58,240 nucleotides of DNA from a virus (lineage: Duplodnaviria > Heunggongvirae > Uroviricota > Caudoviricetes), in IMG/VR virus record IMGVR_UViG_3300033075_001233, positions 64,001 to 122,240 of that record; one strand, 5' to 3'. Positions within the stretch are counted from its first letter, which is position 1. Each line of letters begins with the position of its first letter. The translations under genes and the position numbers were made by a program. Below the pieces are notes generated by a model. It had not been told where the DNA came from and made no database searches. It was given only the letters and a program-made list of their open reading frames with translations. Of this stretch, positions 19,703 to 48,422 are shown one piece after another.

Positions 19703-20416
19703 TTATTTAGTTTTTCTATATTTAAAACTAATTATTTGTGAGATATATCCGGGGTCTAAATTATATTCTTTTGCTAAATTAACTTGGGAGTAATTTCCAG
19801 TATTATATTTATCTCTAATGTCACAAACATTTTTCCAAGATAGCTTACAAAAATAATGTTCTTCTCCTTGAATTTTCTTCCTAGTTCCATTATCATATCC
19901 TTCTTTTATTGCTTTTGAAGTTTTTTTCAAAACTTCTTCTGGAATCTTTTTACCTGTTAATTTTAAAGATATTTTGTCTCTAGTAACCTGATCTACAAAA
20001 TGTCCCGCAGATATTTTTAAGGCTTCGCTTATCTTTTTTCTAGTTTCATTAGAAACTTTTTTACCTAAATTTGCTTCTCTTAATTTTTGCTTGGAAAATT
20101 CATTCATAGCCCCATTATGACCCCCTCCTTTTACATTCATCATGCCAATACTTAATTCTTTATAACACTCAATATAAAAAATTTCATAATTATTTAAAAT
20201 TTCCTGAGAAACATCTGTGGGTAATTCATGAACTATTTCAAATATATGAGTTTCAATTTCATATTTTCTAAAAGAGTTATATAAAATCGGCGAAGATAGA
20301 CTCGTTTTGCTTTTATACCTATGTTTTATAAATCTTTGCTTTACATTTCTGCTCTGACCTATATAAACTTTACCTGTTGGAGAAGTTATTTTATATATTC
20401 CACAAATTTTAGACAT
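19703..20416 (-). CDS. GIY-YIG homing endonuclease with NUMOD3-like repeats
   Basis: CGIYKITSPTGKVYIGQS; SNETRKKISEA-type repeats. Confidence 0.9.
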   Translation of the reverse strand: MSKICGIYKITSPTGKVYIGQSRNVKQRFIKHRYKSKTSLSSPILYNSFRKYEIETHIFEIVHELPTDVSQEILNNYEIFYIECYKELSIGMMNVKGGGHNGAMNEFSKQKLREANLGKKVSNETRKKISEALKISAGHFVDQVTRDKISLKLTGKKIPEEVLKKTSKAIKEGYDNGTRKKIQGEEHYFCKLSWKNVCDIRDKYNTGNYSQVNLAKEYNLDPGYISQIISFKYRKTK

Positions 20417-23755: not shown

Positions 23756-24805
23756 TTAGTCATTTATTTCAATATTTTTTGTTTTAATGTATTCTTTTAC
23801 TTTTCCTTCAAGTTCTACTAAATATTCAGGATTATCTTTTAAAAACTGTTTCACACCATCTTCACCTTGAAGTTTTGTTTCACCCACTGTATACCAAGCA
23901 CCACCTTTTGTGATTTCTCCCATTTCAAGAGCCAAATCGATTATTTCCTGAACCCTTTGAATTCCTTTACCAAATTCTACATAGTATTCAAATGTCTTAT
24001 AAGGAATACCGATTTTAGATTTTGTAATTTTACCTTTTACATGTATTCCATATGCGCCATTTGCATCCTTATCTACACTTTTACTTATTTCAATTTTAAG
24101 AGATTGTAAATATTTCCAAGCCTCTCCACCGGGTTCTGTAAGAGGTACATACCCACCCGGATTCATTCTATACTGATTAAGATATACAAACCCACTAGTA
24201 CTGGCACTCAATGCCCCATTTACAGCCCTATACGCTTTAGCCATCATAGATGCTACGCCTGCAAGTCTACCACCTGAAATACCATTTGCTATCTCTACAG
24301 CAGGGATTAGTGCAGCCACGCTATCCATTACCACCACACCATACAAATTACTTTGTAACACTTTACATAAAAATTCAAGCCATTCTTCACCAGATAATAA
24401 CTCCCTATCTTTAATTCCTAAATGTTTCAGAAGTGATTCTCTATCAACAAGATGTAATTTTGATAAATCTACACCAATTGATTGAGCGTATTCTAAATCA
24501 ATAGTTCCTTCTACATCAAGAAAAGCACATAAATTTCCTTTTCTTTGTTCTTCAGCGATTATATGCAAAGCCAATGTAGTTTTACTACTACTTTCCTTGC
24601 CTATAATACAGGTACATTTACCACCTTTTGGAATACCATTCCCACCAGTAGCAGCGTCTAATGTAAGACTACCCGTACTACACCATTCTTTCACTTCATC
24701 CACCTGTCTTTCAGATGCTCTAATCATTACACCTTTTCCAAAAAGTTCTTCAAATTTCTTGAAAGTTTCATCAACTTGAGATTCATCTAGTTTCTTTTTT
24801 GCCAT
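23756..24805 (-). CDS. recA: RecA/UvsX-like recombinase
   Basis: STGSLTLDAATG.GIPKG, GKESSSKTT P-loop, AFLDVEG, VVMDSVAAL, NQYR, PGG, KSKIGIPYK, GGAWY. Confidence 0.95.
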   Translation of the reverse strand: MAKKKLDESQVDETFKKFEELFGKGVMIRASERQVDEVKEWCSTGSLTLDAATGGNGIPKGGKCTCIIGKESSSKTTLALHIIAEEQRKGNLCAFLDVEGTIDLEYAQSIGVDLSKLHLVDRESLLKHLGIKDRELLSGEEWLEFLCKVLQSNLYGVVVMDSVAALIPAVEIANGISGGRLAGVASMMAKAYRAVNGALSASTSGFVYLNQYRMNPGGYVPLTEPGGEAWKYLQSLKIEISKSVDKDANGAYGIHVKGKITKSKIGIPYKTFEYYVEFGKGIQRVQEIIDLALEMGEITKGGAWYTVGETKLQGEDGVKQFLKDNPEYLVELEGKVKEYIKTKNIEIND

Positions 24806-24921: not shown

Positions 24922-25437
24922 TTAAAATGTCTCGTTTTTAGTTTTATGTTGTTCTGATAATTCGTTTATATGTTTTAAAAATCTCTTATATAATTCTCTA
25001 TTATCAGGATTAGTTGCAAAACTCCTTGTAAATGAGAGTCTTACATTTGATGCATAACTTCTATTTGTAGTACCCACATATTCAGCGAGTAGCACTCCAG
25101 TTATTCCACTCTCCATACCATATTTGATAAAAAGACTTCGTGATATATTATAATCATTTGTCTTTTTATCCACACTATTTTTTACATCAAATCCTGTAAA
25201 ACAAGCCACTGCATTAGCAATAGCTATCGTTTGAATTCGTCTTTTGTCAATATCAACCATTTTTCTCCTCCAAAGGTCTAACCTATTGTTTATAGTTTTA
25301 ACTGCCTTTTTATATTCTTCTGGTGCTTTTTTTCGTTCTTCTACACCATATTTAAGTCTTAACTGTTCTCTTCTTTTAACGTATGTCCATATTTTCGATT
25401 GAATTTCATTTTTGTTTTCCCATTTATATACTTTCAC
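24922..25437 (-). CDS. Hypothetical basic protein
   Basis: The GTG start overlaps the stop of the spliced upstream gene (GTGA). Confidence 0.6.
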   Translation of the reverse strand: MKVYKWENKNEIQSKIWTYVKRREQLRLKYGVEERKKAPEEYKKAVKTINNRLDLWRRKMVDIDKRRIQTIAIANAVACFTGFDVKNSVDKKTNDYNISRSLFIKYGMESGITGVLLAEYVGTTNRSYASNVRLSFTRSFATNPDNRELYKRFLKHINELSEQHKTKNETF

Positions 25438-26499
25438 ACAATTTCTTTTAAAGATTTAATTCTTTTAAAACCAACATCATAACGTTGATTGTGAGGAGCA
25501 TCAAATAAAAATGTACAAATTCCAGCATTATTTAATTCTACAAAATTTTCATATCTCTAAGTTGTTATCATAAAAGCTCTTTATCTTTTATTTCTATAGT
25601 TTTTTATATTTCTATAGTCCAGACTATATCTTCGTCCTTATTAAGGCGTTCTCCCGCTTTCTTGGAGGATTTTATAGCATTTTACAGCATCACCTCTAGT
25701 CGTTAGGCATTTACAAATATTTCTACTTGATTTAGCACGAGATTGTCCATTTCACTATGGAGTTTCCCCGTTTAACGGAATTTTAAGATGACAGATTATG
25801 AAGTTTATATTTCATACATTTTTTATCATCTACAAATATCTCTATTCCACTTTTTCTAGCTACATCAATTTTACTCTCTCCAAAACCAACACTATATACA
25901 GGCATTGTAGGAAATCCATTTTTATCAAGCCATTCTTCTGTCCATTCTTTAGGAATACTACGAGAAGTAATATAACAATGTGGTTCAAAATTAATTTCAG
26001 ATGGGGGCGTTTTTACAGGAATAGAAAGCCAAAATTCCTTATCTTCAGCCAGAAGTTTAAATTTATCTCCTATATGACGATCAAAATTCCAAGTTTCAGG
26101 TACTTCCTGACCATGATGTTTTGTCCAATGTCCCACCCAATCTGCAAGCACTTCATCTATATCAAGTCCTATTTTAGGACGATTTAAATATCTATGTGCT
26201 CTATCATCCCCTTGAGGATATATTTTATAATATGCTGTTAAAAAATGAACATTACAGGCTAAATGAGCAGCATGTAATTCTCCAGATTCAGCATCAAAAT
26301 CTTCACCTTTTTCAATAGCAGCAAGATGGCGTTTAAGTGATGATATTACATTACTCCATACCATTCCTTTTTCCCAATTTCTAGGAGCATATTTTTCAGC
26401 ACCTTTGGTAATTACTTTAACCATTTGTTCATGTGCCCAAGGATGTACTAAATCGTACCTCAGCTTACCTTCATTATATCTTAATCCTTCTCCACTCAT
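25434..26499 (-). CDS. Spliced gene (exons 26499-25825 and 25556-25434): dATP/dGTP diphosphohydrolase-like domain fused to a HAD 5'(3')-nucleotidase domain, 265 aa
   Basis: GKLRYDLV...KGAEKYAPRNWEKG...HLACN N-domain; IGLDIDEVLADW HAD motif I. Removing the intron restores IFVDD-RYENFVELNNAGICTFLFDAPHN, the expected HAD C-terminus. Confidence 0.85.
25557..25824 (-). mobile_element. Group I intron, 268 nt, no internal ORF
   Basis: 5' exon ends in U and the intron ends in G. IGS GUCAUC (25792-25787) pairs with exon GAUGAU with a U.G wobble at the splice site; adjacent AUCU pairs with 3' exon AGAU (P10). Core-like AAUUCCGUUAAACGGGGAA, AAUCUCGUGCUAAA, CCUAACGACUAG and AAGAUAUAGUCU are present. Splicing is in frame. 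Confidence 0.92.
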
Positions 26500-26879
26500 C
26501 GTTGACCATTTAATTCTAAATATTTTCTTGTTTCAGCTACACTAAGTTCATGACTAGGTAGGATGGTAGGTAATTCAAATACTATTTTACCTTGATTTTC
26601 AGCGTATTGTATTTCTTTCCATACACCTGCTGGTATTTTACCATCAACATGTCTTCTAAATGCAAATATATCGCATTCTCCAATTAAATAGTCAAAAAAT
26701 AGCATATATTCTTTATCTTGAAAATCCGCTTGCCATTTTCTAAATTGTTCTTGTATATGTTTATCGCTAGGATTTAACACTATATATCCTAATAATTCTA
26801 ATGTTTCTATATCTCTCTCTTCTTGAGCAGTTCCATATAGATGCATTGAGTGTGCGTAATATACTTTTTTTCTATCCAT
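26496..26879 (-). CDS. Nucleoside 2-deoxyribosyltransferase-like protein
   Basis: KVYYAHS...GYIVLNP...CDIFAF...AGVWKEIQYA..QGK.V matches the NDT/Rcl-like fold including the catalytic-position Glu. Confidence 0.7.
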   Translation of the reverse strand: MDRKKVYYAHSMHLYGTAQEERDIETLELLGYIVLNPSDKHIQEQFRKWQADFQDKEYMLFFDYLIGECDIFAFRRHVDGKIPAGVWKEIQYAENQGKIVFELPTILPSHELSVAETRKYLELNGQR

Positions 26880-44478: not shown

Positions 44479-46446
44479 TTAAAATAAATTAATTTGATTA
44501 GGGTCTTTTTTAATATTTTTTGGCTTTTTACCTGTACTAAGTCTATATATAAGCTTTTTGATCTCATCTATATACCATTCTCTATCTACTTTCTCTAAAT
44601 GTTCTTTATGAGTACTAGGCATAAGACTATTACATATAATTTTTTTATGTTCAGCAGGTCTGATATTAGCATCTGAGGCATTTGTATCGTTATCTTCTCG
44701 TACTATTTTCATCACTTTCACACCCTGTTTAGATACATAATATCTAATAAGTTTTGGTAAGGATTTCCACTTTTTCTCTTCTATATCATAATACTGATGA
44801 TAGTATGTATCTCCTGCTGTACTTCTTCCGCAAAAATGGAATATATTATCAAAAGAACTAACAAATTCTTCAGGTTGTACATTATTTATAAAATATTCAG
44901 ATAGTCCTAAAGGAATCACTCTGAAACTCTTGTTTTTATGCAACTCTGTATCAATTAAGAAATCACCTTTTCTTTTTACTTCACCGTCCATCTTAACAGC
45001 TAAATAATCATTCACTGTTAAAAACCACATATCTTTAAATTCTGCAAATTCTAGTGCATAACTTGTTAATTCACACCATTTTTTACATATTTCATAAAAT
45101 TTATCAATTTCTGTACGTTTTACCAAGAATGTAGCACCATCTGTATTACTCATAATACATTGATTTCTAGCTAATTCTTGGTCTTCGATTAGCATAAGGA
45201 TTGACATTTCTCCTGCTATACATATATTTAATCTGCATTGAGGGTCGTATAACCAATTACTCATATCTCCTGTTTTACCATAAACAGAATTTCCCATATT
45301 TTTGTACCCACTAACAATACCTTTTATCTTTTTATCTTTCTTAGATTCAGGTTTTAATCTTTCTCTTTCTTCAACTCCCCATTTATACGCATTTATAAAT
45401 GATTCTTTATTCAAATGAGCAGGAGAAAATTTATTATTTATAATAGTTCTTGCGTAGTATCCCGTTACGTCTGCGTCTATAATAATATATTCATCATCAG
45501 AATGATATTGCTTATTTTCAATAACATTATGAATTCCCCCAAGACCAACAGTATGTATCTGATTAAATACTCTTACAGATTCCTCAAATTCTTCAGCGGC
45601 TCCTATTTTTTTAGCTTTCATTCTTTGTAAAAACTCCTGTAATTCAGGAGTTTTAAAAGAGACATATTTAGGAATTCCCCACTTGAATTCTACAAATTTC
45701 CTAAAAGTTCCCTTTTTAGGAAGATTTGTATATGAAATATTATTATGTTCACAATAAAGTTTTTTAATTATTTCATCTCCCAATTTAGAATCAGAGTAAT
45801 TTAAACAATTAAATCCAAATTTTTCAGATATTGCTTCTCTTATTTCTATCTGATGATTACCTTTATATATAGTGTTATCAACCTCGCCTATTACATAAAG
45901 ATAATTTCTATAAGTGTTTAAAACGTCATTGTGGCAATAATAAATGAGGTCTTCCACTTCCTCTTGAGTAAAATCTTCTTTTAAATGACTAATCTTCATT
46001 TCTCGAACATCTTCTGCATCCATTTCATATTCAAGTCTTTTTAATCCTACTCTTCGATTTTTATTATCGAAGTGTTGAATCTTAAAGACATCAATAGGTT
46101 TAAAAGTTAATTGATCTTCACGAAAAGGCGGAAAACCTCCATTATTAGTTGCGTCTATTACATCTTGAGCATATTCCCATATTAGTGCAGCAATCTCCCT
46201 ACCTGATAATTTTTCCCATTTCTCATAATTTCTATAAATCCATTCGATCACTTGACCGTCAAATGTTAAATTATTAAATCCTACAAAATAATAGTAACTA
46301 TTATCATCTAAAAACTTAATAAGTTTATATAAATCATTTTGATATTGATTTATAATGAAATCAATCCATTTTCCTGTTTCAGGAACAAACACACTTATCA
46401 AAAAACAACCTTTTGGGGTTTCTATATCATGCACTAATATCTTCAT
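44479..46446 (-). CDS. Family B DNA polymerase with 3'-5' exonuclease
   Basis: Exo motifs HDIET, GFNNLTFD and YCHND; Pol motifs DADVTGYYA, KNMGNSVYGK and SNTDG. Confidence 0.92.
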   Translation of the reverse strand: MKILVHDIETPKGCFLISVFVPETGKWIDFIINQYQNDLYKLIKFLDDNSYYYFVGFNNLTFDGQVIEWIYRNYEKWEKLSGREIAALIWEYAQDVIDATNNGGFPPFREDQLTFKPIDVFKIQHFDNKNRRVGLKRLEYEMDAEDVREMKISHLKEDFTQEEVEDLIYYCHNDVLNTYRNYLYVIGEVDNTIYKGNHQIEIREAISEKFGFNCLNYSDSKLGDEIIKKLYCEHNNISYTNLPKKGTFRKFVEFKWGIPKYVSFKTPELQEFLQRMKAKKIGAAEEFEESVRVFNQIHTVGLGGIHNVIENKQYHSDDEYIIIDADVTGYYARTIINNKFSPAHLNKESFINAYKWGVEERERLKPESKKDKKIKGIVSGYKNMGNSVYGKTGDMSNWLYDPQCRLNICIAGEMSILMLIEDQELARNQCIMSNTDGATFLVKRTEIDKFYEICKKWCELTSYALEFAEFKDMWFLTVNDYLAVKMDGEVKRKGDFLIDTELHKNKSFRVIPLGLSEYFINNVQPEEFVSSFDNIFHFCGRSTAGDTYYHQYYDIEEKKWKSLPKLIRYYVSKQGVKVMKIVREDNDTNASDANIRPAEHKKIICNSLMPSTHKEHLEKVDREWYIDEIKKLIYRLSTGKKPKNIKKDPNQINLF

Positions 46447-47924: not shown

Positions 47925-48167
47925 AAGATTCCCGATGTAGACATAACGGGAGTTTGCTATATGTCCACCGTATGAAAAAAAATACCGTCTGTCAATCAGG
48001 AGTTTTACCTAAGTAGTGATTTCTCGTTCCTGCTAATTGCATATCGCTTAGGGCTTGCTGCATAATTGCAGATGGTAAAAGAACTTAGGTAGCGTATTCG
48101 TGCCAACTTTGCTGCCTCCGTTGTTAATTTCACTCAGTTATGAGTGTAGCACTTATTTTCACCCGTT
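47925..48167 (-). ncRNA. Candidate structured non-coding RNA of unknown class
   Basis: ORF-free, GC-richer than the flanks, with nested complementary segments (TAACGGG/CCCGTTA, TACCTAAGT/ACTTAGGTA, CACTCA/TGAGTG, CTGCA/TGCAG). Strand assumed from the neighbours. Confidence 0.45.
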
Positions 48168-48170
48168 AAT

Positions 48171-48422
48171 CTATTTTATAGTTAAATATTCCGCAATTAA
48201 CCTAATTTCTTGATTATCAGCATCTTCTTTACTTAATCCTGCAAAAATAATTTCTTTAATTACTTCCTTCCAGTCATATTTTACTATAGTATTATGTAAA
48301 AGTGGTTGTCTTTTAGTTTGCTTTTTTTCATATTGCTTAAATCTTTTGGTTAAGTTAGTAGACTGACCAATGTAAACTTTCCCATTAGGAAAGGTTAATT
48401 TATATATAATGTAGCTTTTCAT
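48171..48422 (-). pseudogene. Truncated GIY-YIG endonuclease (catalytic domain only)
   Basis: YIIYKLTFPNGKVYIGQS...EIRLI, stopping at 83 aa; own TAGCTTTG element at 48433-48426. Confidence 0.65.

Follow-up and report, generated by a model that had tools for sequence, protein, structure and literature searches.

A td-like group I intron that most likely lost its endonuclease gene, in a nucleotide hydrolase gene of a Caudoviricetes virus

The window, meaning the whole 58,240-nucleotide (nt) stretch of the IMG/VR virus record IMGVR_UViG_3300033075_001233 (Caudoviricetes) that was analysed, carries on its minus strand a gene for a MazG-like/NT5C-type nucleotide hydrolase that is predicted to be split by a group I intron of 268 nt. 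As judged from the sequence, positions 25824-25557 are a genuine group I intron, with these boundaries, a P1 and a P10 pairing, a terminal G and a P7. In all likelihood it is a td-like intron that most likely still splices itself and that lost its endonuclease gene through a deletion in the P1 loop. A first-pass annotation, made by a model from the letters and their open reading frames (ORFs), had proposed this intron right after the Asp-Asp motif of the HAD phosphatase, and all the features it named were found where it had placed them.

Split gene and splice junction

The ORF starts at 26499 on the minus strand and, in the unspliced frame, stops at 25785-25783. The resulting product has 238 amino acids (aa) and ends in the residues KKCMKYKLHNLSS. 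The predicted layout of the gene is as follows.

25825-26499, minus strand: exon 1, 225 codons, ending in GAU GAU; it encodes an N-terminal domain of the PF18909 MazG-like dATP/dGTP diphosphohydrolase type, then most of an NT5C-type HAD phosphatase
25557-25824, minus strand: intron, 268 nt, predicted group I, with no intact ORF and no P2, td-like (subgroup IA type)
25434-25556, minus strand: exon 2, 40 codons plus stop, starting with AGA UAU; its translation reads RYENFVELNNAG...PHN...KEIV

When position 25825 is joined to 25556, a 265-aa protein is obtained that reads ...FVDD|RYENFVELNNAG... over the junction, the 40 codons of exon 2 (25556-25434) being translated as RYENFVELNNAGICTFLFDAPHNQRYDVGFKRIKSLKEIV. 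This protein is colinear from end to end, and gap-free over the junction, with 30 of its best database homologues (262-273 aa), all of which read ...FVDD RYENF.... Relatives are also encoded by 35 IMG/VR loci. The junction is reached in 33 of them, and 32 of these 33 are uninterrupted: the DD runs straight into the exon-2 sequence. Precise excision of the intron thus restores the uninterrupted coding sequence conserved in 30 proteins and 32 viral loci, none of which lacks the exon-2 tail. The boundaries can be shifted by 1 nt with an identical ligated sequence; the group I rules alone (a U before the 5' splice site, a G before the 3' splice site) fix the ones given here. An intein, a group II intron and translational bypass were considered and ruled out, given the stops in the exon frame and the presence of a group I core; the insert, moreover, has no coding capacity for an intein or a reverse transcriptase.

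The first domain of the host protein is clear (PF18909, dGTP_diPhyd_N, 103.6 bits against a cut-off of 27, residues 3-100). For the second, HAD motif I (DIDEV) and motif IV (DD) are both present in the translation, and the intron is inserted directly after the motif-IV Asp-Asp. The NT5C profile (PF06941) gives no match with the unspliced product of the window. The protein of an uninterrupted locus, L005 (89% identical), scores 23.4 bits against a cut-off of 24.8, and the homologues P0013 and P0027 score 25.5 and 25.2 bits. The match is reached only with exon 2 attached, and in the uninterrupted homologues it spans the junction. In an AlphaFold model of the L005 protein, with a mean predicted local distance difference test (pLDDT) score of 69.7 and values of 77-88 around the junction, the intron site lies right after the motif-IV strand, and exon 2 forms a helix and a further strand of the core. 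The best Foldseek matches of this model are all HAD phosphatases, and weak (E 0.015 or weaker); a sequence search of solved structures with the L005 protein gave no match. A product without exon 2 is probably inactive as a phosphatase. The gene call is hereby corrected: gene callers give the truncated 238-aa product, and the predicted real product is a 265-aa bifunctional nucleotide hydrolase.

Ribozyme core and relatives of the intron

The elements of the predicted ribozyme are listed below, all on the minus strand.

25825-25831, minus strand: 5' strand of P1, AGAUGAU, the last 7 nt of exon 1; in the fold, a U.G wobble at the 5' splice site involves its last U
25786-25796, minus strand: internal guide, AUCU (P10 guide, 25796-25793) followed by GUCAUCU (3' strand of P1, 25792-25786)
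25780-25774 with 25658-25652, minus strand: P3 (RNAalifold, structure-blind MAFFT alignment)
25771-25766 with 25742-25737, minus strand: P4 (RNAalifold consensus)
25762-25757 with 25750-25745, minus strand: P5 (RNAalifold consensus)
25736-25707, minus strand: P6/P6a (RNAalifold consensus)
within 25707-25696, minus strand: 5' strand of P7, GACUA
25696-25693 (GAGG) with 25668-25665 (CCUC), minus strand: covarying extra helix of the P7.1 type, between the 5' strand of P7 and P3'
25648-25643 with 25639-25633, minus strand: P8, pairing read from the sequence and the Rfam alignment
25629-25621, minus strand: 3' strand of P7, AUAUAGUCU, within which UAGUC can pair with GACUA
25617-25612 with 25599-25594, minus strand: P9 (alignment-based)
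25591-25585 with 25576-25570, minus strand: P9.1 (alignment-based)
25557-25569, minus strand: 3' tail, GAUAACAACUUAG, with the terminal G (25557) at the 3' splice site
25652-25780, minus strand: span of the catalytic core, P3-P7 (RNAalifold and pair counts with controls)

P1 is present in the minimum-energy fold, where AGAUGAU (25831-25825) pairs with GUCAUCU (25792-25786) with the U.G at the junction, and the AUCU of the guide (25796-25793) can pair with the AGAU of exon 2 to form P10. An identical guide occurs in two related loci, L006 and L068, whose introns occupy the same insertion site as that of the window. Exon 2 begins with AGA in all three intron-bearing alleles, fitting the P10 guide; at this Arg/Lys codon (25556-25554) the uninterrupted alleles have AGA, AGG, CGG, CGC, CGT, AAG and others. 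The first codon of exon 2 may influence whether an allele can take up the intron.

An 18-mer from J6/7-P7 is present in 24 other viral contigs; the P7 motif AAGATATAGTC, with one mismatch allowed, is no commoner than in shuffles. RNAalifold, run on a MAFFT alignment of 13 cores, recovered P3, P4, P5, P6/P6a, the extra helix after the 5' strand of P7, P3', P9 and P9.1. In this structure-blind alignment, double compensatory changes are found in 27 of the 40 pairs. The P7 strands are invariant in the 13 copies, and the GAUAAC...G tail is conserved in members of the family. A covariance model, R1, was built from the RNAalifold consensus of the 13 cores. With 37 distinct copies, 92.5% of the cells are paired and 39 of the 40 pairs covary; none of 500 shuffles paired as highly, and slid registers gave 36-45%. 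The 37-copy alignment was fitted to R1 and is hence structure-leaning, whereas the 13-copy MAFFT alignment is not. All modelled helices are intact in the window copy, which scores 222.3 bits with R1, in the middle of the family range. Outside the core, in seven further insertion contexts, changes in the upstream exon are matched by changes in the P1 guide, and the terminal U.G is always kept. Examples of such exon/guide pairs are GACGAU/GUCGUC (L059), AGAGGAU/GUCCUCU (L048 and L051) and ACGACGU/GCGUCGU (L045). The group I identity, splice sites, P1, P10, terminal G and P7 of the first-pass annotation are supported.

The general Rfam model sees the intron less readily. No match to RF00028 was obtained at the gathering threshold (50 bits) or in E-value scans of the whole window; a local search over 801 nt gave 40.9 bits (E 6.9e-9) across the full model, 1-253. 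According to the alignment, the shortfall arises because P2 is absent and a large unmodelled P7.1 insert lies between P7 and P3'. The gathering cut-off is a curated score and not a structural criterion.

R1 also recognizes introns of known phages. It gives 92 bits with the intron splitting the thymidylate synthase (td) gene of the T4-like Salmonella phage GRNsp7, 96 bits with a helicase-gene intron of the crAss-like Bacteroides phage PhiCrAssBcn14, 85 bits with the ribonucleotide-reductase (RNR) intron of an Enterococcus phage and 74 bits with a tail-gene intron of a Clostridium phage. Because of the P7.1-type helix and the match of R1 to the td-gene intron, we conclude that the intron is to be classed, by its predicted structure, as td-like, of the subgroup IA type and without P2, an assignment that goes no finer than IA.

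Other members of the family are found in varied surroundings. In L048, L054, L059, L064 and L002, introns appear at one site of a DnaB-like replicative helicase, with junctions of the form ...(E/D)D|(I/V)KESG(D/N)...(A/C)D(L/V), which resemble the DnaB RESGxIEQDAD motif; the split gene of PhiCrAssBcn14 is likewise annotated as a replicative helicase. Two R1 matches on one strand of L045 (4055-4312 and 4343-4566) lie about 30 nt apart, which suggests tandem introns with a micro-exon, and L046, L050 and L052 have three to five R1 matches each. With the full R1 model, neither the window nor the complete 73-kb record yielded a second copy of the family; a 20-bit match at 45604-45669, inside a long ORF, was treated as chance.

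Endonuclease-bearing forms and loss of the endonuclease gene

At the identical site (GTAGATGAT|...|AGATATGAA), L006, 84% identical in exon 1, has an intron of 1024 nt, and L068, a further relative, one of 1031 nt. In each, the P1 loop, which lies between the 5' splice site and the guide, encodes a LAGLIDADG_2 endonuclease of 263-270 aa with an N-terminal helix-turn-helix. The L006 enzyme matches PF03161 at E 3e-34. The ribozyme cores of both introns are 76-81% identical to that of the window, with compensatory changes. Their endonuclease ORFs end in ...CM(T/K)YKLH(N/D)LSSL(N/K)SVKRGNS(L/I)VK(R/W)TIPC, and CM(K/T)YKL stands at or near the C-terminus throughout the endonuclease family, even in introns at other sites. 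In L006 (4449-4515) and L068, the last 20-30 LAGLIDADG codons overlap the 3' strand of P1, P3, P4 and P5, so that the sequence there has to satisfy the protein and the RNA fold alike.

The window intron retains the end of such a gene.

25735-25824, minus strand: endonuclease relic, 90 nt or 30 codons, reading KKCMKYKLHNLSS, stop, NSVKRGNSIVKWTISC; it overlaps P1, P3, P4 and P5
25818-25820, minus strand: deletion junction with a 3-nt microhomology, AAT, where contigs from river metagenomes diverge into the ends of the endonuclease segment

Over the KKCMKYKLHNLSS tail and the 16 codons past the stop, identity with residues 241-270 of the L006 endonuclease is 80%. Because of this identity and of the conserved CM.YKL, the tail is taken as a relic of the endonuclease gene. 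An intact LAGLIDADG (PF03161) ORF does not occur in the window intron: only the 30-codon C-terminal relic, with its stop, was found. Two remarks of the first-pass annotation must be adjusted accordingly. The intron indeed has no intact ORF, but its first 90 nt (25824-25735) are an ORF remnant; and the tail of the unspliced ORF, described as spurious, is what remains of the 3' end of the endonuclease gene.

In two river metagenomes, Logan contigs agree with positions 25000-25820 but for 1 mismatch in 821 nt, and then continue with ...TILIKDYVIE before CMKYKL. A second river contig matches 25818-25872 and continues with AAATTTGGAAATG..., which is homologous to the 5' ends of the L006 and L068 introns. 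These contigs carry the ends of an endonuclease gene, and a near-identical phage therefore has an endonuclease-bearing form of the intron. None of the LAGLIDADG homologues collected ends in DYVIECMKYKL, as the exact endonuclease of the river variant would. Compared with the river form, the window allele appears to lack roughly 0.75 kb through a deletion between two AAT triplets; the breakpoint is resolved to 3 nt, and elsewhere, over the 821 nt compared, the genomes are about 0.1% apart.

The sequences give two states, not their order, and the order could be the reverse: an ancestral ORF-less intron whose P1 loop was later invaded by a LAGLIDADG gene. Invasion of pre-existing introns by endonucleases is an accepted evolutionary route. 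Here, however, the window copy already has 13 in-frame codons of the endonuclease C-terminus (30 through one stop), CMKYKL among them, and an incoming gene would not meet its own C-terminus; in addition, the 3-nt microhomology at the junction is typical of a deletion. This order of events is thus very unlikely. Loss rather than gain is favored because the ORF-less copy keeps the enzyme's own conserved C-terminal codons. The window intron most likely derives from an endonuclease-bearing form by a recent deletion, the direction of the event being deduced from the relic.

Splicing, mobility and known systems

In the splicing reaction that we propose, the end of exon 1 (AGAUGAU) would pair with the guide GUCAUCU in the pre-mRNA to form P1, with the U.G at the cleavage site. 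The P3-P9 core would then bind guanosine in P7, exon 2 would be aligned by the AUCU/AGAU pairing of P10 and by the terminal G, and ligation would give GAU GAU|AGA UAU and the 265-aa MazG-like/NT5C-type phosphatase fusion. As to its origin, the intron would belong to a family common in uncultured phage contigs (crAss-like and others), with a LAGLIDADG gene in the P1 loop whose last 20-30 codons or so overlap P1 and, in the longest forms, also P3 to P5. The loop deletion of about 0.75 kb between 3-nt repeats would have kept the ribozyme and the 30 relic codons.

Exon 2 differs from that of the uninterrupted L005 by 17 synonymous and 1 nonsynonymous codon changes. Four alleles, three with the intron and one without, share the first 26 residues of exon 2 even though many synonymous changes separate them. 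Strong purifying selection acts on exon 2 in intron-bearing and uninterrupted alleles, and it is therefore normally expressed.

A number of points weigh against an intron that is still active. Splicing of the window copy is deduced from its anatomy. P7 is backed by conservation alone and not by covariation, and the 40.9 bits with RF00028 stay below the curated cut-off of 50, so that default scans miss the intron. If the deletion is recent, the conservation of exon 2 alone is no proof that the shortened intron splices. Furthermore, the exon-1 frame now runs 13 codons into the intron, through the guide, up to the stop at 25785-25783; in the endonuclease-bearing versions only 2-8 intron codons are read before the stop. 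Ribosomes might consequently disturb P1 in the window copy and reduce the efficiency of splicing.

Taken further, these points would make the intron a dead relic, spliced inefficiently since the loss of the endonuclease, with the gene truncated to 238 aa (the MazG-like domain and a broken HAD domain). The reading of the exon-1 frame through the guide would fit such a state, as would a recent deletion that left exon 2 no time to decay and the weakening of one P4 pair from G-C, as in the family, to G-U. Yet the helices of the window copy are all intact and its R1 score (222 bits) lies mid-range in the family. The deletion took sequence of the P1 loop only, leaving P1, the extension hairpin and the guide untouched, and some relatives without an ORF, such as the one in L059, have P1 loops that are about as short. 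A dead relic is therefore unlikely, and an intron that still splices itself is the reading retained. It is conceivable, if improbable, that translation and P1 compete, giving a tunable mixture of a truncated MazG-like-only protein and the full bifunctional enzyme, the intron being a non-autonomous passenger spread in trans by the LAGLIDADG enzyme of co-infecting sibling phages.

The mobility of the intron has to be considered together with the nucleases of the genome. Apart from the intron relic, the 73-kb record contains no LAGLIDADG gene, and the HNH_3 family is absent from it. Two genes of another family are present.

19703-20416, minus strand: gene for a GIY-YIG endonuclease with NUMOD3, 237 aa, free-standing, Seg/I-TevI-like, among glycosyltransferase and methyltransferase genes
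48171-48422, minus strand: truncated GIY-YIG gene, 83 aa, GIY-YIG catalytic domain only (30.7 bits)

The region just downstream of the truncated gene (47925-48167) has neither an Rfam family nor an R1 match. The first-pass annotation had suggested that a free-standing nuclease of this genome mobilizes the intron in trans and that splicing gates the phosphatase domain. The two GIY-YIG genes, one of them full-length, and the collaborative homing known in other phages lend this idea some plausibility, and an unspliced mRNA would indeed give the 238-aa product. However, both genes lie more than 5 kb from the intron and belong to another family than LAGLIDADG; in known collaborative pairs the two are adjacent, which is not the case here. 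What accompanies the intron at this site is the intron-encoded LAGLIDADG enzyme, of which the record has no gene. Nothing points to regulation over plain parasitism, and the proposal, highly improbable in this combined form, was not borne out as regards the nuclease. No free-standing endonuclease gene was found next to the intron: the upstream neighbour has no Pfam nuclease domain, and the gene just downstream of exon 2 also adjoins the uninterrupted L005 allele. A collaborative-homing arrangement is thus absent, because the nucleases are distant and of another family and the downstream neighbour accompanies the empty allele too.

As an endonuclease-deleted intron, the window copy would spread only through recombination or through a co-infecting, endonuclease-bearing sibling that cuts uninterrupted alleles. 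It is possible that the LAGLIDADG enzyme of such a sibling cuts the empty alleles and that the window copy then serves to repair the break. In most uninterrupted alleles, 26-31 of the 33 nt of the target site are identical, a conservation to be expected of a homing site placed in a catalytic motif.

Regarding the surroundings, the upstream 127-aa gene (26496-26879, minus strand) overlaps the start of the nucleotidase gene by ATGA, which suggests translational coupling; it has no Pfam match, and no homologue of it was found beside the nucleotidase gene in the 34 related loci searched. A full-length RecA homologue (23756-24805, minus strand; PF00154 at 180 bits, plus RecA_C) lies two genes downstream of the intron-bearing gene. 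The gene and its intron match Cellulophaga and crAss-like phage records; a megablast search of 20 kb of the window against the phage collection gave no match.

Group I introns with LAGLIDADG endonucleases have been described in crAss-like phages, in the genes for MCP, PolB, primase, ATP_43b and TerL, where they were found through their endonuclease domains (Yutin et al. 2021, PMC7886860). Their endonucleases belong to the family found here, and the helicase intron of PhiCrAssBcn14 matches R1; in contrast, the window copy is free of an endonuclease and interrupts a nucleotidase fusion gene. Lacking this domain, it would escape surveys of that kind. Group I introns without an ORF in AT-rich phage genomes evade both the default thresholds of Rfam and endonuclease-domain surveys, and the intron load of crAss-like and related phages is therefore probably underestimated. 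The literature searched describes no 5'-nucleotidase/MazG-like fusion gene split by an intron, in line with the remark of the first-pass annotation that this gene is not a usual intron target. The nucleotidase gene, hit at catalytic motif IV, thus joins the intron targets in nucleotide metabolism. Its novelty is modest, td-type introns in nucleotide-metabolism genes being classical; the current understanding of group I introns is unchanged, and the evolutionary story is an expected one.

The intron of the T4 td gene (IA2, I-TevI), which self-splices, is a close counterpart. The P3-P4-P5-P6-P7 core is nearly identical (UAAACGGGGAA...GACAAUCCCGUGCUAAAU...GUAAAUGCCUAACGACUA...GAUAUAGUCUG), an extra helix lies between P7 and P3', the host gene belongs to nucleotide metabolism and ORF-less variants exist, the GRNsp7 td-gene intron being about 250 nt long. 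The window intron differs in the absence of P2 and in its host gene and insertion site. Moreover, the endonuclease of its family is a LAGLIDADG enzyme encoded in the P1 loop, whereas that of td is a GIY-YIG enzyme encoded in P6a.

In cyanophage S-PM2, an ORF-less psbA intron and the free-standing endonuclease F-CphI are an example of collaborative homing. The window intron, likewise a phage group I intron without an ORF, would depend on an endonuclease in trans to spread, but no free-standing endonuclease gene adjoins it.

The homing cycle, which Goddard and Burt are said to have described in 1999, runs from invasion through decay of the endonuclease to loss of the intron. At this single site, close relatives carry empty alleles (32 loci), endonuclease-bearing alleles (L006, L068 and the river contigs) and the endonuclease-deleted allele of the window, which would stand at the stage at which the endonuclease has been lost. 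The endonuclease was apparently removed here by one clean deletion, and not by decay through point mutations. With its empty, endonuclease-bearing and endonuclease-deleted alleles, the locus offers a natural snapshot of the homing cycle.

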